Shown here: in pieces, positions 29,990-40,055 of the stretch
Layout of the letters: each line of letters starts with the position of its first letter
Numbering within the stretch: position 1 is the first letter of the stretch
Program-made: the position numbers and the translations under genes
From: Escherichia coli
GTDB lineage: Bacteria > Pseudomonadota > Gammaproteobacteria > Enterobacterales > Enterobacteriaceae
DNA length: 64,000 nt
NCBI RefSeq assembly: GCF_003790525.1
Contig: NZ_CP033633.1
Direction: 5' to 3' (one strand)
The notes under the pieces: model-generated
The model's input: the letters and a program-made list of their open reading frames with translations, nothing else
Told to the model about the DNA's origin: nothing
The model's database searches: none

Positions 29990-30500
29990 CCACTTCGGCT
30001 CCCGGCTGCCTGGCGGCATCCGGTCGTCAGGCCCGACTCCGACAGGCAGCTGCTGGCGCACCCGCCAGTCTCCGCCGAACCCGCTGGCGCGGTTTCGGGC
30101 TGTCGCTACGGTCCGATGCGTGAAAACCCGGGCTTGCAGCGACCGTTCCGGTCGCGCCGCCTCTGTCGCGCCGTGACCTGCGCTCCCTGCACACCTGACG
30201 GTGTGTGAGGAAACTGCGCCTGATGGCGCAGCAGTCTTCCCTCCTGCCGCCACCTCTGCGGCCTGTTTCCCGCTGTGGACTTTCCGGGGGGCAGACGTAA
30301 CCCCCTCCCGTTCCATCTGTCCAGGGTGAGATGCACCGGCCACAAAATTTTTAGCCATGAACCCGGCTAAAAATTTTGCGTCCGCCCCCGGACAGCTGTC
30401 CCGTGAGGCGGTAAACGGGCCCCCATCGGAAAGGTCCACTGCGGGGAGAAACCCCTGTGAAGTGGACGGCAGGAGGAGCTTTCGCTCCTCTGAAGGGGCA
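29990..30500. promoter_or_regulatory. Structured GC-rich repeat, family A copy 1 (candidate ssi/Frpo-like single-strand promoter)
   Basis: About 500 bp repeated at 36343-36848 and partly at 39725-40055; upstream of ssb. Confidence 0.5.
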
Positions 30501-30559
30501 CATGAACGTCCCGTCGCCGGTATCCGGTTTATCTCACATCTTTCAGTCAGGAGGTTCTT

Positions 30560-31087
30560 ATGAGTGCACGTGGTATCAACAAGGTCATCCTCGTCGGGCG
30601 TCTGGGCAATGATCCGGAAGTCCGTTACATCCCCAACGGGGGCGCAGTGGCAAACCTGCAGGTGGCCACGTCAGAAAGCTGGCGCGACAAACAGACGGGG
30701 GAGATGCGGGAGCAGACGGAATGGCACCGCGTGGTGCTGTTCGGCAAGCTCGCGGAAGTGGCAGGTGAATATCTGCGCAAGGGCGCGCAGGTCTACATCG
30801 AGGGGCAACTCCGTACCCGTAGCTGGGAAGATAACGGTATCACCCGTTACGTCACTGAAATTCTTGTTAAGACCACGGGCACCATGCAGATGCTGGGGAG
30901 TGCACCACAGCAGAACGCTCAGGCGCAACCGAAGCCTCAGCAGAATGGGCAGCCACAGAGTGCTGACGCGACGAAAAAAGGTGGCGCGAAAACGAAAGGC
31001 CGTGGACGTAAGGCCGCGCAGCCCGAGTCTCAGCCGCAACCGCCGGAGGGGGAGGATTACGGGTTTTCAGACGATATCCCGTTCTGA
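30560..31087 (+). CDS. ssb: Plasmid single-stranded DNA-binding protein
   Basis: OB-fold N-terminus [18 protein letters not shown], Gln/Pro-rich linker, acidic C-terminal DDIPF tail. Confidence 0.95.
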
Positions 31088-31105
31088 CTGGCCTGACTGT
31101 GATAA

Positions 31106-31378
<273 letters not shown>

Positions 31379-31441
31379 GAGAGGTGCCGGACGGGAACGC
31401 GTCCGGCAGACATACAACCATCCCGGTCAAAGGAGAAATAT

Positions 31442-33001
31442 ATGTCAGTTACAGAGTCTAAGACAAAAACGGAGCGTAAATCCAGCCGTAAACCTGCAAA
31501 AACGCAGGAAACTGCACTGTCTGCCCTGCTGGCGCAGACGGAGGAAGTGAGCGTGCCGCTGGATTCACTGATTAAATCACCGCTGAATGTGCGCACGGTG
31601 CCGTATTCTGCGGAGTCCGTCAGTGAACTGGCTGATTCCATTAAGGGAGTCGGCCTGCTGCAGAATCTGGTTGTTCATGCCCTGCCAGGTGACCGTTACG
31701 GTGTCGCCGCAGGTGGTCGCCGACTGGCAGCACTCAACATGCTGGCAGAGCGTGACATCATTCAGGCTGACTGGCCTGTCCGCGTGAAAATTATTCCGCA
31801 GGAGCTGGCGACGGCTGCATCGATGACCGAGAACGGTCATCGTCGGGATATGCACCCTGCCGAACAGATTGCCGGATTCCGCGCAATGGCGCAGGAAGGC
31901 AAAACACCTGCGCAAATCGGTGATTTGCTGGGCTATTCACCCCGCCATGTCCAGCGAATGCTGAAACTGGCTGACCTTGCGCCTGTCATCCTCGATGCGC
32001 TGGCAGAAGACCGCATCACCACCGAACACTGTCAGGCGCTGGCGCTGGAGAACGACACCGCGCGTCAGGTGCAGGTGTTTGAAGCCGCCTGCCAGTCAGG
32101 ATGGGGTGGAAAACCGGATGTGCGGGTTATCCGCAACCTGATTACGGAAAGTGAAGTGGCGGTGAAGGACAACACTAAATTTCGCTTTGTGGGGGCTGAT
32201 GCTTTCTCGCCTGACGAACTGCGCACCGATTTGTTCAGCGATGACGGGGACGGTTATGTCGACCGCGTGGCGCTCGATGCCGCCCTGCTGGAAAAACTCC
32301 AGGTTGTTGCAGAGTCCCTTCGGGAAGCAGAAGGCTGGGAATGGTGCGCCGGGCGCATGGAGCCAGTCGGTGAGTGCCGTGAGGATGCCGGAACATACCG
32401 CTGTCTGCCGGAGCCGGAAGCGGTGCTGACGGAGGCGGAAGAAGAACGCCTGAACGAACTGATGACGCGTTACGACGCGCTGGAAAACCAGTGTGAGGAA
32501 TCCGACCTGCTGGAAGCAGAAATGAAGCTGATGCGCTGCATGGCGAAGGTCAGAGCGTGGACGCCGGAGATACGTGCCGGAAGCGGTGTGGTGGTGTCCT
32601 GGCGTTATGGCAACGTATGTGTCCAGCGTGGTGTGCAGTTGCGCAGTGAAGATGACGCGACTGACGACGCTGACCGCACGGAACAGGTGCAGGAGAAAGC
32701 GTCAGTGGAGGAAATCAGTCTGCCACTGCTGACGAAAATGTCTTCCGAACGCACGCTGGCAGTCCAGGCGGCACTGATGCAGCAACCGGACAAATCCCTG
32801 ACACTGCTGGCATGGACGCTCTGCCTGAATGTGTTTGGCAGCGGAGCGTACAGTAAACCAGCACAAATCAGCCTGGAATGTAAACATTATTCGCTGACCA
32901 GCGATGCGCCGTCAGGGAAGGAAGGTGCCGCATTCATGGCGCTGATGGCAGAAAAAGCCCGTCTTGCGGCCCTGTACCGGAGGGATGGTCACGGGACATG
33001 A
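31442..33001 (+). CDS. ParB-like nuclease-domain protein of the leading region
   Basis: 519 aa; N-terminal ParB/Srx-like region (GLLQNLVV...GGRRLAAL). Confidence 0.65.
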   Translation: MSVTESKTKTERKSSRKPAKTQETALSALLAQTEEVSVPLDSLIKSPLNVRTVPYSAESVSELADSIKGVGLLQNLVVHALPGDRYGVAAGGRRLAALNMLAERDIIQADWPVRVKIIPQELATAASMTENGHRRDMHPAEQIAGFRAMAQEGKTPAQIGDLLGYSPRHVQRMLKLADLAPVILDALAEDRITTEHCQALALENDTARQVQVFEAACQSGWGGKPDVRVIRNLITESEVAVKDNTKFRFVGADAFSPDELRTDLFSDDGDGYVDRVALDAALLEKLQVVAESLREAEGWEWCAGRMEPVGECREDAGTYRCLPEPEAVLTEAEEERLNELMTRYDALENQCEESDLLEAEMKLMRCMAKVRAWTPEIRAGSGVVVSWRYGNVCVQRGVQLRSEDDATDDADRTEQVQEKASVEEISLPLLTKMSSERTLAVQAALMQQPDKSLTLLAWTLCLNVFGSGAYSKPAQISLECKHYSLTSDAPSGKEGAAFMALMAEKARLAALYRRDGHGT

Positions 33002-33399
33002 CGACATTCCTTTCACTCAGTCAGGAGGTGCTGTTATCCCTGCTCAGTTTCTGCACCGCGTGCAGCATCCACGGCGTTCAGACCCGCGAGTGTGGTCACA
33101 CGTCACGCAGCCCGCTGGACACGCTGGAGAGCGCCATCGGTTTTCACATGCGCGACTGGTGGCAGCCGACAAAAGCAAACTTCTTCGGACACCTGAAAAA
33201 GCCGCAGATTATCGCAGCCCTGAATGAGGCAGGACTGTCCGGTGCCGCACGGGACGCGGAGAAGATGAAGAAAGGCGATGCGGCTGAACATGCAGAGTTC
33301 CATATGAAAGACAACCGCTGGGTGCCTGGCTGGATGTGTGCACCACGTCCACAGACGGATACCACTGAACGCACTGATAACCTGGCTGATGCCGCCTGA
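32998..33399 (+). CDS. Hypothetical protein, ATGA-coupled to the ParB-like gene (possibly its detached C-terminal part)
   Basis: 133-aa ORF starting at the ATGA overlap with the preceding stop. Confidence 0.35.
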   Translation: MTTFLSLSQEVLLSLLSFCTACSIHGVQTRECGHTSRSPLDTLESAIGFHMRDWWQPTKANFFGHLKKPQIIAALNEAGLSGAARDAEKMKKGDAAEHAEFHMKDNRWVPGWMCAPRPQTDTTERTDNLADAA

Positions 33400-33453: not shown

Positions 33454-33888
33454 ATGAAAACTGAACTGACCCTGAATGTCCTGCAGACCATGAACGCACA
33501 GGAATATGAAGATATCCGTGCTGCGGGAAGCGATATGCGCCGTAATCTCACTCACGAGGTGATGCGTAAAGTGGACGCACCGGCTAACTGGATGATGAAT
33601 GGCGAGTATGGCAGTGAGTTCGGGGGCTTTTTCCCCGTCCAGGTTCGTTTCACGCCAGCCCACGAACGTTTCCACCTGGCATTATGTTCGCCGGGAGACG
33701 TCTCTCAACTCTGGATGCTGGTTCTGGTGAATGGTGGTGGACAGCCTTTCGCCGTCGTTCAGGTGCAACATATCTTCACGCCTGTCGCGATCAGTCACAC
33801 GCTGGCGCTCGCCGCGACACTTGATGCGCAGGGATACAGTGTTAACGACATCATTCATATTTTGATGGCAGAAGGAGGTCAGGCATGA
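33454..33888 (+). CDS. psiB: PsiB, plasmid SOS-inhibition protein
   Basis: [27 protein letters not shown]... near-identical to F PsiB. Confidence 0.9.
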
Positions 33889-34604
33889 GCGCACGTTCAC
33901 GGGCACTGATCCCCCTCAGCGCAGAACAACAGGCCGCCATGCAGGCTGTGGCTGTCACCGAACAACGTCGTCGTCAGGGACGCACACTTTCAGCATGGCC
34001 TTATGCCAGCGCTTTCTTTCGCTGCCTGAATGGCAGTCGCCGGATTTCGCTGACCGATCTCCGCTTTTTTGCCCCTGCGCTGACGAAGGAGGAATTTCAT
34101 GGCAACCGTCTCCTGTGGCTGGCTGCCGTGGATAAACTGATTGAAAGTTTTGGTGAAGTCTGTGTTCTTCCCCTGCCATCCGATGCGGGGCATCGTCTGT
34201 TCCCGTCTGTTCCTTTTCGTGAAGGTGAGCGTCGTCGTCAGAAAACCACGCTGACAGAGCAGAAATACAGCCGCCAGCGGGAACGTGAGGCAGAACGACG
34301 GGAACTGGAATACCAGACATGTTTTGCTCAGGCGCAGATTGACCTTGCGTTTCATACTCCCGCCACGGTCGGAAGCTGGTTGTCCCGCTGGTCTGGTGCT
34401 GTTGAGGAGCATGATCTGGAAACGATTTTCTGGGGGTGGTGCGGGCGTTTTCCGTCACTGTCATCATTTGACCGGTTTTTCTGGCAGGAGGGACCACTCT
34501 GGCGGCTGATTTTTGAAGCCGGTGAGGCCGGTCGTGGTGCACCGGTACAGGTACGTGCACTTGAGCAGTGGATGATCCCGAACAAGCTGGAGAACGTAAT
34601 ATGA
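33885..34604 (+). CDS. psiA: PsiA
   Basis: 239 aa directly after psiB with overlapping stop/start, as in F and ColIb-P9 leading regions. Confidence 0.8.
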
Positions 34605-35197
34605 TGAAATCAGACGAAAAATATCAGGTTCCCGTGTGGATGCGACCTCTGTTGCCGTTGCTCTGCAACACCGGGGGGAACGATCCGGAAGAACTGCTGA
34701 ATGATACAGCAACCACTGTCAGTGCGAATGTTGTCCGTTATGTACTGATAGTTGCTGTGCGGTCGCAGGTTGATCTGCTGCAGATTCTGTACAGGAAAGG
34801 GCTGTTGCGCACAGAGATACCAGGTGGCTTTTCACCGGAAGAAGCGCAGGCACTCCTGGATAATCTGGTGCGCAGCCATATCAGCAGGGCGCTGTCGGGT
34901 GAGCGAATGGCAGCCCGTGACAGAAATGCCGATCTGGCCTGGATTCGACAGCAACTGGTCGATGCCGCCTGGTTTGTCCGTGCCACACTGGAGGCGCATG
35001 GGATGGGCGTCGGAAATGAGAGTCCCCCTGCTCAGCCGGAGACAATGCCGGACATACAGACACGGGAACTGGTGATGTTGATCAAGCGACTGGCATCATC
35101 GCTGAAAGCGGTGAAACCGGACAGTTGTGTGGTGCGTGAAGCGCAGGACTGGCTGCGCGACAGAAAACTTGTGAGCATCACGGATGTTCTTCGGTGA
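34601..35197 (+). CDS. Leading-region hypothetical protein
   Basis: About 198 aa from the internal Met; no family recognised. Confidence 0.4.
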   Translation: MMKSDEKYQVPVWMRPLLPLLCNTGGNDPEELLNDTATTVSANVVRYVLIVAVRSQVDLLQILYRKGLLRTEIPGGFSPEEAQALLDNLVRSHISRALSGERMAARDRNADLAWIRQQLVDAAWFVRATLEAHGMGVGNESPPAQPETMPDIQTRELVMLIKRLASSLKAVKPDSCVVREAQDWLRDRKLVSITDVLR

Positions 35198-35662: not shown

Positions 35663-36163
35663 ATGTCTGTTGTTGCACCTGCTGTATACGTTGGAACCTG
35701 GCACAAATACAACTGCGGAAGCATCGCCGGACGCTGGTTTGACCTGACCACGTTTGATGATGAACGCGATTTTTTCGCCGCCTGCCGTGCCCTTCACCAG
35801 GATGAAACCGATCCGGAACTGATGTTTCAGGATTATGAGGGATTCCCGGGGAATATGGCCTCTGAATGTCATATCAACTGGGCCTGGGTTGAAGGCTTCC
35901 GCCGGGCGCGGGATGAAGGCTGCGAAGAGGCTTATCGTCTCTGGGTGGATGATACCGGTGAGACGGATTTTGACACCTTCCGCGATGCCTGGTGGGGCGA
36001 GGCTGACAGTGAGGAGGCTTTTGCGGTTGAGTTCGCCAGTGATACCGGCCTGCTGGCTGGCGTGCCGGAGACGGTGGCGCTCTATTTTGACTATGAGGCG
36101 TATGCGCGGGATTTATTCCTGGACTCCTTCACCTTTATTGACGGTCATGTGTTCCGTCGGTGA
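35663..36163 (+). CDS. ardA: ArdA antirestriction protein (type I restriction inhibitor)
   Basis: MSVVAPAVYVGTWHKYNCGSIAGRWFDL... near-identical to ColIb-P9 ArdA; 166 aa from ATG 35663. Confidence 0.9.
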   Translation: MSVVAPAVYVGTWHKYNCGSIAGRWFDLTTFDDERDFFAACRALHQDETDPELMFQDYEGFPGNMASECHINWAWVEGFRRARDEGCEEAYRLWVDDTGETDFDTFRDAWWGEADSEEAFAVEFASDTGLLAGVPETVALYFDYEAYARDLFLDSFTFIDGHVFRR

Positions 36164-36342
36164 TTTACTCCCCCGCTCCGGCGGGGGTATGGCCTGCCGG
36201 GCCGCCGGAAAACCCTGGCAGGCTTACGCCTGCCTGAAATGCAGGAGGGCCGCGCCTGCGGCGCTGCCCTTCCTGCCCGTCATGGTGTGAGGCATTTTTC
36301 TGTTATGTCGTTTCTGTTGTTCTGATTTCCGGAGGCGGGGAC

Positions 36343-36848
36343 ACCCTTCGGCTCCCGGCTGCCTGGCGGCATCCGGTCGTCAGGCCCGACTCCGACAGGC
36401 AGCTGCTGGCGCACCCGCCAGTCTCCGCCGAACCCGCTGGCGCGGTTTCGGGCTGCCGCTACGGTCCGATGTCTGAAAAACCAGGCCTGCAGCGACCGTT
36501 CCGGTCGCGCCGCCCCTGTCGCGCCGGAAACGGCGCTCCCTGCACACCTGACGGTGTGTAAGGCCACTGCGCCTGATGGCGCAGTTGTCTGCCCTTCCGC
36601 CGCCACCCCTGCGGCCTGTTTCCCGCTGTGGACTTTCCGGGGGCTGAAGCGGCCACAACACGTTTCAGCCGTCCAGGGGAGAGATGTACCAGCCACAAAA
36701 CTTTTTGCCGCAGGCGTCAAAAACTTTTGCGTCTGCCCCCGGACAACTGCCCCGTGCCGTGGCAGTCGCTGCCCCATCGGAAAGGTCCACTGCGGGGAGA
36801 AACCCCGAAGAAGTGGACGGCAGAAGGGGCTTTCGCCCCTCCGGGGAA
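36343..36848. promoter_or_regulatory. Structured GC-rich repeat, family A copy 2
   Basis: Near-identical to 29990-30500; upstream of ORF 36895. Confidence 0.5.
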
Positions 36849-36894
36849 TAACCGGTCGGCCCGGCGACCTGATTCAGCAGAAGGAGACGTTTTC

Positions 36895-37329
36895 ATGACA
36901 GTCAGCAGCACGATTTCCGTTTTTTGCCGAGACGGGGTGTTCCGTACCGTTTACTGCCACCTGCACGGTGAGCCGACCTGGAACGGTCGCATCCTGCATA
37001 CCCACTATGCCACCGGTCAGCTGGCCGAAGCCCTGGTTGAACACGGAGATATCCGTTGCCTCGGTCCCCGTTGCGACAAACCCGCCGGGCATACGCTTCA
37101 GAACCCGGTGGACGGTGTGACGGCTTATTACGGACGTGACAGTGGTTTCCGGATGGACAGTGAAGCGCGTGAGTACCGCTCTTTCAGGGAGGCTATTGCC
37201 ACTGAAAGCACAGAAGAGGTGCGCTTCCATTATGTGTTCATCGACGGCTACTGGAAGGTGATGTACCGCACGCCGGAAGGCTGGAAGATGAAAGCGCTCG
37301 CGCTGGCACTGCGTCGCTGTCCGGAATGA
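36895..37329 (+). CDS. Leading-region hypothetical protein
   Basis: 144 aa, Cys/His-rich N-terminus; no family recognised. Confidence 0.4.
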   Translation: MTVSSTISVFCRDGVFRTVYCHLHGEPTWNGRILHTHYATGQLAEALVEHGDIRCLGPRCDKPAGHTLQNPVDGVTAYYGRDSGFRMDSEAREYRSFREAIATESTEEVRFHYVFIDGYWKVMYRTPEGWKMKALALALRRCPE

Positions 37330-37421: not shown

Positions 37422-37688
37422 ATGAGGCCATCAATTATCTTCGCAACCGCCGAGTATGTAAAGCGTCTGCGTGAAGAGTGCCGGCGGGAGAACAAACCCC
37501 TGCACCGCCATACCCGCTTCAGACGCCAGGAACTGGCACCGGATGAGATTAACCCGGACGTCCTGGCGATGGGCGGTCATATCGCCAGACGCTGCAGTGA
37601 GCGGAAGCGGGTGCGTATCCCCGCCATGAAAGTCAGCGAATGGGGCCACCTGCTCCGCGCGCTTGAAATTGAGCGGGTCTGCCACTGA
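37422..37688 (+). CDS. Small basic hypothetical protein
   Basis: 88 aa from ATG 37422. Confidence 0.35.
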   Translation: MRPSIIFATAEYVKRLREECRRENKPLHRHTRFRRQELAPDEINPDVLAMGGHIARRCSERKRVRIPAMKVSEWGHLLRALEIERVCH

Positions 37689-37752: not shown

Positions 37753-38715
37753 GTGAGTAAGAAGAAAACCACCACGACGCCCACGCCGCATGATGCCGCG
37801 TTCCGGTCGTTCCTGGCGAACCCCGACGTCGCCAGAGATTTTCTGGAACTGCATCTTCCGGCGGAGTACCGGCAGTTGTGCGACCTGTCCACGCTGAAGC
37901 TGGAACCCGCCACCTTTGTTGAGCCGGACCTGCATCAGTACGCCAGCGATATCCTCTGGAGTGTGAAAACCACCGGGGGTGAAGACGGCTATATTTATAC
38001 GCTCATCGAGCACCAGAGCACCGAAAATCTGTACATGCCTTTCCGCATGTTACGTTACAGTGTGGCGGCGATGCAGAGACATCTGGAGCAGCACAAAACA
38101 TTGCCACTGGTGATTCCGGTGCTGTTCTATCATGGTGAGCGCAGCCCGTACCCGTACAGCATGAACTGGCTGGACTGTTTTGAGGATCCGGCGCTTGCGG
38201 CTAAAATATACACAAAGCCGTTTCCGCTGGTTGATATCACTGTCGTTGATGACAATGAAATCATGAACCATCGCCGGATGGCCGCACTGACGCTGCTGAT
38301 GAAGCATATCCGCCATCGTGACATGATGGAGCTGCTGGACAAACTCCCGCAGGTCATGGTGGAAATTTCAGACGAGCAGGTGCGTGTTCTGATTCATTAC
38401 ATCGTTAACGCAGGGGACTCTGTATCACCGGAATTTATGCGGGCGCTGGCTGAGCGTCTGCCGCAGCATGAGGATAAACTGATGACTATTGCCGAACGTC
38501 TTGAGCAGCAAGGAATACAGAAAGGAATACAGCAGGGAATACAGCAGGGAATACAGCAGGGAATACAGCAGGGAATACAGCAGGGAATACAGAAAGGCCG
38601 CATGGAGGAGAAGCAGGATATTGCGCGTCAGCTTCAGAAAACGGGAATGCCATCTGCACAAATCTGTCAGATCACCGGACTTTCCGAAGCTGAACTGAAG
38701 AACATCACTCACTGA
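37753..38715 (+). CDS. Rpn (YhgA-like) recombination-promoting nuclease, full length
   Basis: GTG start after RBS; N-terminal domain DAAFRSFL...DILWSV...YTLIEHQST; C-terminal MTIAERLEQ...TGLSEAELKNI module containing seven in-frame 12-bp repeats. Confidence 0.75.
   Translation: MSKKKTTTTPTPHDAAFRSFLANPDVARDFLELHLPAEYRQLCDLSTLKLEPATFVEPDLHQYASDILWSVKTTGGEDGYIYTLIEHQSTENLYMPFRMLRYSVAAMQRHLEQHKTLPLVIPVLFYHGERSPYPYSMNWLDCFEDPALAAKIYTKPFPLVDITVVDDNEIMNHRRMAALTLLMKHIRHRDMMELLDKLPQVMVEISDEQVRVLIHYIVNAGDSVSPEFMRALAERLPQHEDKLMTIAERLEQQGIQKGIQQGIQQGIQQGIQQGIQQGIQKGRMEEKQDIARQLQKTGMPSAQICQITGLSEAELKNITH
38512..38595 (+). repeat. In-frame 12-bp tandem repeat (7 units, GIQQ/GIQK) inside the Rpn gene
   Basis: GGAATACAGCAG repeated seven times with two A-for-C variants. 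Confidence 0.9.
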
Positions 38716-38728
38716 TGAGAACCACAAA

Positions 38729-38753
38729 GCCCGGCAAAATGCCGGGTTTTTTT
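38729..38753. terminator. Rho-independent terminator after the Rpn gene
   Basis: CCCGGCAAAATGCCGGG followed by TTTTTTT. Confidence 0.6.
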
Positions 38754-38777
38754 GTCAGCAGGAGCAGAGCAAACAGT

Positions 38778-38951
38778 ATGACGATTGCAGAACGTCTTGA
38801 GCAAAAAGGTCGCCAGGAGGGCAGGATGGAAGGTGCGCTTGAAAAAGCCCTGGCTATTGCGTGCCAGCTTCAGAAAATGGGGATGACGCCGGAGCAGATT
38901 AAGCAGGCTACCGGACTGTCCGAAGCTGAACTGAAAAAAATCATTCACTGA
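38778..38951 (+). CDS. Stand-alone Rpn C-terminal-domain small protein (RpnS-like), copy 1
   Basis: 57 aa MTIAERLEQKGRQEGRMEG...TGLSEAELKKIIH; paralogous to the C-terminus of the Rpn gene. Confidence 0.5.
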   Translation: MTIAERLEQKGRQEGRMEGALEKALAIACQLQKMGMTPEQIKQATGLSEAELKKIIH

Positions 38952-38965
38952 TGAGAGCATCACAG

Positions 38966-38990
38966 CCCGGAAGAATGCCGGGCTTTTTTG
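38966..38990. terminator. Rho-independent terminator after RpnS-like copy 1
   Basis: AGCCCGGAAGAATGCCGGGCT followed by TTTTTT. Confidence 0.6.
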
Positions 38991-39009
38991 CCAGCAGGGG
39001 CAGAGCAGT

Positions 39010-39240
39010 ATGACTATTGCAGAACGTCTTATACAGAAAGGTTTCGACGAAGGTTTTAAAGAAAGTTTTAAAGAAAGTTTTAAAGAAGGCTTTAAAGAAG
39101 GCTTTAAAGAAGGGGCGCTTGAAGTGGCGCGGGAAATAGCCTGCCGGCTGCGGGATATAGGCTGGCCGCCGGAACGGATTCAGGAGGTCACGGGACTTTC
39201 CGGTGAAGAACTGAAAAAGCTGTTTCCTGATGAGCAGTAG
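39010..39240 (+). CDS. Stand-alone Rpn C-terminal-domain small protein (RpnS-like), copy 2
   Basis: 76 aa MTIAERLIQKG...(FKES/FKEG x5)...TGLSGEELKKLF; contains its own 12-bp tandem array at about 39050-39112. Confidence 0.5.
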   Translation: MTIAERLIQKGFDEGFKESFKESFKEGFKEGFKEGALEVAREIACRLRDIGWPPERIQEVTGLSGEELKKLFPDEQ

Positions 39241-39270
39241 CCTGGCATTCAGCCAGGCTGTGAATCATGC

Positions 39271-39522
39271 TCACACATCCTCTGCCGTTTCCCCCAGTTC
39301 ATTTTCCAGACGCCTGATGATATCTGCCTTACGCATCCCCTGCATGTGAGGCAGCAGGTCACGGACTGAAAGAGCCTGGGTGGTCCTCCAGACGGTGACG
39401 TCCACCTGTTCCGCATTTTCCCAGGCGTGCCATGTTCTCTGCGTCACGCCAAATTCTCTGGCCGCTTTTTCGCGTGACCAGAGCATGCTTTTTCGCCAGA
39501 TTCGCAGTTCCCAGCCGGTCAT
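39271..39522 (-). CDS. Small helix-turn-helix regulator (hypothetical)
   Basis: 83 aa; HTH-like segment AAREFGVTQRTWHAWEN. Confidence 0.45.
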   Translation of the reverse strand: MTGWELRIWRKSMLWSREKAAREFGVTQRTWHAWENAEQVDVTVWRTTQALSVRDLLPHMQGMRKADIIRRLENELGETAEDV

Positions 39523-39625: not shown

Positions 39626-39724
39626 TTTTGGTTGCAGATGTCGTGCGGTTTTCTCTGTTTTCACCTGTGCGGGAGTGGTGCGCCAGTGACCACAGCATGC
39701 CGTTGTTGTGCCGTCGGTTTTCTC

Positions 39725-40055
39725 CGGTCGCGCCGGATGCGGCGCTCCCTGCACACCTGACGGTGTGTAAGGCCACTGCGCCTGATGGCGCAGCTGTCTC
39801 TGCCTGTCTGCCGCCGCACTGCGGCCCGTTCTCCGCAGACGAACTTTCCGGGGGTACATACACGACCACATCCCGTTTCAGTCGTCCAGGGGAGAGATGT
39901 ACCAGCCACAAAACTTTTTGCCGCAGGCGTCAAAAACTTTTGCGTCTGCCCCCGGACAACTGCCCCGTGACGTGGTGAGCGTCCCCCGTCGGAAAGGTCC
40001 ACTGCGGGGAAATCCCCGAAGACCCGGACGGCAGAAGGAGCTTCGCTCCTCCGGG
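39725..40055. promoter_or_regulatory. Structured GC-rich repeat, family A copy 3 (shorter)
   Basis: Shares the 3' roughly 330 bp of family A; upstream of ORF 40100. Confidence 0.5.

Follow-up and report, generated by a model that had tools for sequence, protein, structure and literature searches.

Stand-alone RpnS-type modules of two kinds follow an Rpn nuclease gene in the leading region of an IncI-complex plasmid of Escherichia coli

RESULTS

An Rpn nuclease gene with a predicted intragenic antitoxin start

The stretch of DNA analyzed here, 64,000 nucleotides of the Escherichia coli contig NZ_CP033633.1 (assembly GCF_003790525.1; hereafter the window), contains a full-length gene of the Rpn (YhgA-like) nuclease family followed by two small genes that encode relatives of its C-terminal module only (Table 1). 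Characterized rpn genes encode a toxic nuclease, RpnL, and, from an internal start, the antitoxin RpnS (Zhong et al. 2023, PNAS, PMC10400941). Judged by its sequence, the locus is the gene ygdB of IncI-complex plasmids and belongs to this gene-within-gene type of nuclease toxin-antitoxin (TA) system. We designate the RpnS-like (S) modules by their four-residue repeats: G, with GIQQ repeats, is fused to the nuclease, and R (RQEG/RMEG) and F (FDEG/FKEG) are encoded in the window by the first and the second small gene, respectively.

The rpnL open reading frame (ORF) starts with GTG, has an AGGAGG motif 4-5 nt upstream and encodes 320 residues. Residues 11-207 match positions 1-197 of the 203 in Pfam model PF04754 (Transposase_31/YhgA-like; E=1.3e-78), and the protein scores 192 bits against the Rpn family model of NCBIfam, TIGR01784, for which the cut-off is 52.1. 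Its identity to RpnA, -B, -C, and -E of strain K-12 is 47-54% in the alignment, and 45-54% by blastp when RpnD is included. RpnA is inactivated by mutation of D11, D63, E82 or Q84 (PMC5350276), and the corresponding residues of RpnL (D14, D66, E86 and Q88) do not vary in the alignment. The first-pass annotation of this DNA, made from the sequence without database searches, had already read a full-length Rpn gene here, and the profile matches and conserved catalytic residues bear this out: the gene is an intact Rpn nuclease gene, whose product is predicted to cleave DNA and to be toxic. A PADLOC scan returned weak and irrelevant matches only, its set containing no Rpn model. The plasmid lineage has DDNE where chromosomal Rpn proteins have a conserved PDDE; the residue concerned, N168 (38254-38256), aligns with D165 of RpnA, of which the D165A mutant is hyperactive (PMC5350276).

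The in-frame ATG at 38482 has a GAGGA Shine-Dalgarno sequence 7 nt upstream, and the methionine that it encodes is invariant in the alignment with K-12 RpnA, -B, -C, and -E, in agreement with the earlier suggestion that a small C-terminal protein could start there. The G module so delimited matches the C-terminal end of TIGR01784 (E=2.6e-11). Its array, as delimited by Tandem Repeats Finder (TRF), consists of 7.2 copies of a 12-bp unit (96% matches, score 153). Seven in-frame units are indeed present, as first read, but they are not perfect repeats, since five GGAATACAGCAG units are flanked by a pair of GGAATACAGAAA units. The G arrays of plasmid ColIb-P9 and of a second plasmid with the gene order of the window (L004) have five units. 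In published RpnS proteins, the four-residue repeats lie in the first helix, 8-20 residues past the initiating methionine, and their number varies among strains (PMC10400941); in the G, R and F modules alike they begin at residue 10-11.

Two small genes encode stand-alone S modules

Both small ORFs start with MTIAERL and end with TGLSxxELKK, segments common to all three modules. Like the nuclease, both match TIGR01784, but their match is confined to positions 219-273 of 273 (R, E=1.4e-10; F, E=1.1e-4), so that the view of the two genes as encoding the C-terminal module only holds over these last ~55 positions of the model. Each also has a repeat type of its own, as had been noted: RQEG-RMEG, two units, in the first, and FDEG plus five FKE[S/G] units in the second (TRF, 6.3 copies of 12 bp, 90% matches, score 103). 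The three modules share 37-63% mutual identity and their helices are of unequal length. Both small genes are stand-alone RpnS-type (rpnSs) modules, as far as these family matches and motifs can tell.

Structural comparisons gave less. In a sequence search, the R module, and only this one, matched PDB entry 7TH0 (RpnA-S), with E=0.013 over the full length of R. An AlphaFold2 model of F has a helix at residues 3-30 followed by three short helices, at a mean predicted local distance difference test score of only 68; with this low-confidence model, Foldseek found nothing significant, 7TH0 ranking third (E=0.89). A PDB profile search was discarded as support for the fold, because RpnAS is itself a member of the profile, which makes the match circular, and the matches to PPR and designed-repeat proteins are repeat artifacts. 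The Pfam scan of F returned Yae1_N alone (E=5.7e-5) and not DUF4351 (PF14261), an annotation that has been reported for rpnSs genes of some species and does not define the class; homologs of F bear a precomputed PF27070.1 annotation. RefSeq names for the small genes include "RpnC/YadD family protein" and "Rpn/YhgA-type helix-turn-helix domain-containing protein." The two TRF-delimited repeat tracts (38506-38592 and 39038-39113) score against the FliH and Yae1_N models through GxxxG-type glycine repeats, a hint that their helix-helix packing motif is that of FliH proteins of flagella and type III secretion systems.

A protein search with F gave 335 clusters of homologs; among the variants seen, the length goes from 52 to 76 residues in steps of four. 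In the non-repeat parts, the ratio of nonsynonymous to synonymous polymorphism (pN/pS) is 0.18 for R and 0.23 for F, indicating purifying selection. Length changes are nearly always multiples of 12 nt, and few of the 120 F variants listed are frameshifted or truncated. Together, the low pN/pS and the 12-nt steps argue, indirectly, that the small ORFs are translated.

Organization of the tandem units

Each unit opens with 5' ATGAC(T/G)ATTGC(C/A)GAACGTCTT, continues with the 12-bp repeat tract and a segment encoding a helical bundle, and ends with a TGATGA stop. The homology between tandem units extends into the terminators. By these features, G, R and F are diverged paralogous S modules, the first of them fused to the nuclease, arranged in tandem units. 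A hairpin with a T-run had been described at the end of each unit; this is correct for the first two, and the third closes with a hairpin lacking a T-run. Independent transcription of the small genes had also been proposed, but no sigma-70-like site was found upstream of either. Inspection of the 58-62-nt spacers by eye yielded a -35-like hexamer (TTGTCA/TTGCCA) with no acceptable -10 element, and this candidate promoter was rejected.

The stop codon of rpnL overlaps an ATG (TGATG, 38713-38717), from which an ORF (38715-38951) reads across the terminator hairpin into the first small gene in the same frame and would add 21 residues to its product. The same in-frame extension accounts for the gene calls of 85 and 89 residues made for F in many plasmids; in the window, the extension of F is out of frame, because the spacer before the second small gene is 4 nt shorter. 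The overlap makes coupling by termination and reinitiation at the rpnL stop possible.

TABLE 1 Features of the rpn locus and its surroundings, with their positions in the window
Feature	Position	Strand	Basis
rpnL (ygdB), full-length Rpn/YhgA-like PD-(D/E)XK nuclease, G-type C-terminal module	37753-38715	+	Pfam, NCBIfam, catalytic residues
Intragenic rpnS (G module, 77 aa)	38482-38715	+	In-frame ATG, GAGGA Shine-Dalgarno; TIGR01784 C-terminal end
12-bp in-frame repeat array, GIQK/GIQQ x7	38506-38592	+	TRF
Intrinsic-terminator-like hairpin + U7 after rpnL	38726-38752	+	-16.9 kcal/mol, z=-4.3
rpnSs gene 1 (R module, 57 aa, RQEG-RMEG)	38778-38951	+	TIGR01784 C-terminal end, PDB 7TH0
Intrinsic-terminator-like hairpin + U6 after rpnSs gene 1	38964-38990	+	-13.2 kcal/mol
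rpnSs gene 2 (F module, 76 aa)	39010-39240	+	TIGR01784 C-terminal end
12-bp in-frame repeat array, FDEG + FKES/FKEG units	39038-39113	+	TRF
Hairpin without T-run, between rpnSs gene 2 and convergent helix-turn-helix gene	39238-39260		-16.6 kcal/mol
ssi/Frpo-like single-strand promoter repeat upstream of ygcA-ygdA-rpn	36353-36841	-	Repeat family, single-stranded DNA fold
ygcA-like ORF, head of co-oriented string	36895-37329	+	Coding sequence in NZ_CP029742.1; ygcA in LC567077
ygdA-like ORF	37422-37688	+	Annotated coding sequence
Convergent helix-turn-helix gene (ygeA)	39271-39522	-	Bounds locus in all variants examined

A nested series of cassettes across plasmids

The locus has matches on 2021 plasmids of PLSDB, of which 1895 are conjugative, and a sensitive DNA search placed it in 1341 of 5426 complete E. 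coli genomes; the matches fall in 1416 records, so that co-residence of two such plasmids does happen, in about 75 genomes. We fetched and parsed 14 locus variants for their architecture and took frequencies from sampled rows. The three modules keep one order and form a nested series, which we write with the module fused to the nuclease domain (N) first. G.R.F, that is, [N+G]+R+F, is found in the window and in L004, both of type IncK2/Z, and G.F ([N+G]+F) in ColIb-P9. R.F ([N+R]+F), the commonest form among the loci examined, accounts for eight of the 14 variants (plasmid types IncI1/Igamma/K1, K2/Z and others), of which one is frameshifted. Two forms have no stand-alone gene: N fused to an R/F hybrid, in L006, and N fused to F, in R621a and, according to a tblastn search of plasmids, at least 15 plasmids of Shigella and E. 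coli. Most loci examined have an F gene.

Counts of G.R.F were based on matches in one piece together with record spans; a count by coverage of at least 80% was rejected, because the self-similar modules merge into one place. Matches running in one piece from the end of G through R to the start of F occur in roughly 50 of ~1990 records (2-3%), which makes the three-cassette form of the window a rare state, and the most complete one. Short S-module protein queries returned only short or partial proteins and missed even the full-length RpnL of 100% identity, so the lack of a fused form in such lists could not be used; it was tblastn that then showed the F-fused RpnL.

Comparison of homologous plasmids, which the first-pass annotation had suggested, established that repeat numbers vary independently in the three modules (G, 5-7; R, 1-5; F, 0-6). 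An RpnL with an R module of two repeats is encoded, for example, in CP142529. The window and an R.F plasmid are 96-100% identical save for one clean unit of 296 bp, made up of the G module, its terminator and the spacer; such an indel is the expected product of recombination between the conserved 5' ends of units. The linker and G module of the window differ by 20-45% from those of ColIb-P9, and the locus is thus a mosaic. At the level of sequence, the array is shown to change by gain and loss of 12-bp repeats and by removal of whole units, through which the next cassette in line becomes joined to the nuclease domain. The earlier idea of a diversifying toxin-inhibitor locus fits these changes, which proceed in four-residue steps in every module and include the deletion and fusion of modules.

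Two further observations concern individual variants. In L012 (CP061251.1, 2165-2989; IncK2/Z), a frameshift just past MTIAERLEQK truncates RpnL, with loss of the S module, and the stand-alone F gene is intact, making this plasmid a natural toxin-tail knockout. Some IncI plasmids contain an extra 390-bp gene, absent from the window, the end of which overlaps the rpn start (L002, 3256-3645; L005, 666-1055; L010, 666-1055; L019, 276-665); one record calls it ccgAII, and others mislabel it CbiX.

Location in the leading region of a conjugative plasmid

The region is 100% identical to the plasmid NZ_CP029742.1 of E. coli AR_0085, a conjugative plasmid of type IncK2/Z and MPF_I. The genes follow each other in the order ssb, parB-like, psiA, (IS150), ardA, ygcA, ygdA, rpn and the small genes, beyond which lie the convergent helix-turn-helix gene, a DUF4942 gene and nikA/relaxase. 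The genes psiA, ardA, rpn and nikA/relaxase are all on the plus strand and oriented toward the origin of transfer (oriT); the distance to oriT is 3-4 kb for the gene string and about 3 kb for the rpn locus. This order and orientation place the locus in the leading region of the plasmid, where it had been located at first reading.

A repeat of about 330-490 bp resembling ssi/Frpo elements is present in three copies in the window (~30000-30490, 36353-36841 and 39724-40051), and the rpn locus of ColIb-P9 is flanked by copies at the same two positions. Folded as single-stranded DNA (ssDNA), the transferred (minus) strand of 36340-36900 reaches -174.7 kcal/mol (z=-10.1). The elements ssi1-3 are class 1 ssDNA promoters of early-induced operons, and in the IncI1 plasmid pESBL ssi promoters drive the most strongly induced operons of new transconjugants (PMC12672017). 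The repeats of the window are, by prediction, ssDNA promoters of this ssi/Frpo class 1 type. Given its position behind such a copy and close to oriT, transcription of the rpn string probably begins at once when the DNA reaches a recipient.

The first repeat copy overlaps the annotated start of a ParB-like coding sequence (29995-31953), which is probably over-extended. The ygcA-like gene is called "post-segregation killing protein PndC" in several GenBank records and "hypothetical" in RefSeq, and it had no PADLOC match at E<=0.01. An insertion of IS150 (IS3 family; 33626-34995) separates psiA (32439-33158) from ardA (35663-36163). The first part of the window (1-32380) contains colicin M with its immunity gene, colicin B immunity, astA within IS1414, ccdAB and a RelE/ParE pair, as well as a umuDC-like operon, parM, an antirestriction gene, ssb and parB-like genes.

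DISCUSSION

The locus combines an intact Rpn nuclease gene with S modules of three kinds, only one of which is fused to the nuclease. We think it probable, though by no means assured, that R and F serve the RpnL-G array as spare or alternative antitoxin cassettes, suited to the RpnL proteins of sister plasmids and to a switch of specificity. In the mechanism that we envisage, RpnS-G made from the internal start at 38482 would hold RpnL-G inactive through the pairing of identical repeat helices. R and F, which differ from G in the sequence and length of their repeats, probably would not neutralize the RpnL of their own plasmid; they would be antitoxins matching the RpnL alleles of sister IncI/K/B/O/Z plasmids met in the same cells. 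The two genes would also be reserve C-terminal cassettes, enabling a single deletion to switch the specificity of the toxin, and the whole gene string would probably be transcribed from the ssDNA promoter when the plasmid enters a recipient. What makes this the best reading is that the R protein of the window matches the RpnL tails of the sister plasmids L002 and L013 (95-96% identity and the same number of repeats, two) and not chromosomal S domains.

Several facts weigh against such a role for R and F. For cross-neutralization the repeat numbers must match, and they are highly variable; the F module of the window has six repeats, against three in the only F-type RpnL examined, that of R621a. 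Furthermore, the small genes have weak Shine-Dalgarno sequences, no recognizable promoter and good terminators upstream, on account of which the levels of the R and F proteins may be low.

R and F might instead provide an extra antitoxin dose, or a regulator, for their own RpnL-G, which they would bind through the conserved three-helix part, and in this way they would buffer a burst of RpnL arising from leading-region transcription on entry. A published commentary proposes that second RpnS copies may add regulatory flexibility (PMC10400984), the MTIAERL and TGLSxxELKK segments are conserved in all three modules, and the stand-alone F gene is kept in most loci examined, whichever module is fused to the nuclease. 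We nevertheless regard this as unlikely in view of the strict specificity that has been reported: a mismatch of one repeat abolishes neutralization, and RpnAS does not block RpnBL (PMC10400941). The modest identity of G, R and F and their differing helix lengths also speak against it, as do F-only plasmids such as R621a, which manage with no stand-alone copy.

A bolder version of the sister-plasmid idea, and one to which we give little credence, is that the locus is an immunity polymorphism in competition between plasmids. RpnL, expressed from the ssDNA promoter on entry, would attack the DNA of cells or rival replicons that lack a matching S protein, R and F would give immunity to the RpnL types of sister plasmids, and unit deletion together with repeat slippage would yield new specificities. 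This would liken the locus to the orphan immunity arrays of bacteriocin, contact-dependent inhibition (CDI) and Rhs systems, but with its action at the establishment of the plasmid.

It is improbable that the stand-alone genes are remnants of a tandem duplication that have no function and give no protein. Their poor ribosome-binding sites, the terminators before them and the failure to find a promoter would suit such remnants, as would the lack of annotation of the first small ORF in the PLSDB copy of the record and the existence of plasmids without the stand-alone genes. However, the non-repeat parts evolve under constraint (pN/pS of 0.18-0.23), lengths vary almost exclusively by multiples of 12 nt, with few broken copies among the F variants listed, and most loci examined, out of ~2000 matching plasmids, have the F gene; YpaA, the chromosomal counterpart, has been detected as a protein (PMC10400941).

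Least probable is the role put forward in the first-pass annotation, in which the stand-alone S proteins are anti-defense decoys against chromosomal Rpn proteins of the recipient during plasmid entry: the leading-region position, the orientation toward oriT and the upstream ssDNA promoter would suit it, and orphan antitoxins are enriched in leading regions, where they are proposed to counter TA systems of hosts or rivals (PMC11541004), but G, R and F share no more than 27-48% identity with the K-12 S domains (RpnA to RpnE and YpaA), close matches were found to the S domains of sister-plasmid RpnL alleles only, 2311 of the 2340 DNA matches in the 5426 complete E. coli genomes are on plasmids and 29 on chromosomes, and the known pairing of RpnS with RpnL requires matching repeats.

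The arrangement is not new in its principle, contrary to what the first-pass annotation supposed. Separate downstream rpnSs genes have been described on chromosomes and plasmids (ypaA after rpnE, and rpnCSs), and they are reported to disappear when they are deleted or when the rpnSs region becomes fused to the N-terminal domain (PMC10400941). The present locus shares with these systems the PD-(D/E)XK nuclease, the conserved internal start of a small C-terminal protein, repeats of four residues in strain-variable number about 10 residues past the methionine, and S-only genes lost in the same two ways. It differs in several respects. There are two stand-alone genes of two types, compared with one in the published cases; the published stand-alone copy groups with the S module encoded immediately upstream of it, whereas R is 63% identical to the upstream G and 95-96% identical to RpnL tails of sister plasmids; and a terminator-like hairpin closes each unit, whereas rpnE and ypaA are 12 bp apart. 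A plasmid-borne E. coli Rpn system with an intragenic antitoxin is also known from ECOR13, where RpnP2LS is toxic without RpnS and lowers plaquing by T-even phages (PMC10400941).

The other difference is the setting, a conjugative leading region behind an ssDNA promoter. Zhong et al. mention neither conjugation nor leading regions (PMC10400941), and Rpn/YhgA genes do not appear in the survey of leading regions by Samuel et al. 2024 (PMC11541004); in the literature that we searched, there was nothing specific on the names ygdB and ygeA or on Rpn together with "leading region." With the orphan antitoxins and TA genes of that survey, the locus shares its place adjacent to oriT, its orientation toward oriT, the company of ardA, psiB or ssb genes and ssDNA promoters, and a proposed action on rival mobile elements or host systems (PMC11541004). 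Unlike those orphans, the small genes described here are accompanied by the toxin, and they are paralogs of its tail. What the locus adds to RpnLS with rpnSs, a known kind of system, is the natural series of cassettes and its leading-region context.

Downstream of the full-length toxin gene, cdiA and rhs loci have partial cassettes in tandem, with a conserved junction in common. An exchange by recombination at this junction gives the toxin another C-terminal specificity, and the surplus cassettes can protect against the alleles of neighbors. In those arrays, the swapped tip is the toxic part and the immunity gene is separate, whereas at the rpn locus the tip that is swapped is the antitoxin or dimerization domain and the nuclease domain is constant.

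The locus is present on ~2000 PLSDB plasmids, its small genes are found in a quarter of complete E. coli genomes, and it belongs to the genes that a recipient receives first. The forms G.R.F, G.F, R.F, R/F hybrid and F, with their graded numbers of repeats, constitute a natural allelic panel suited to two questions about Rpn proteins, namely, how the number and type of repeats determine specificity and what the role of stand-alone rpnSs genes is. If the spare cassettes do not neutralize sister toxins, the locus would be one more well-annotated Rpn module; if they do, they would add a plasmid-versus-plasmid layer to the biology of leading regions.

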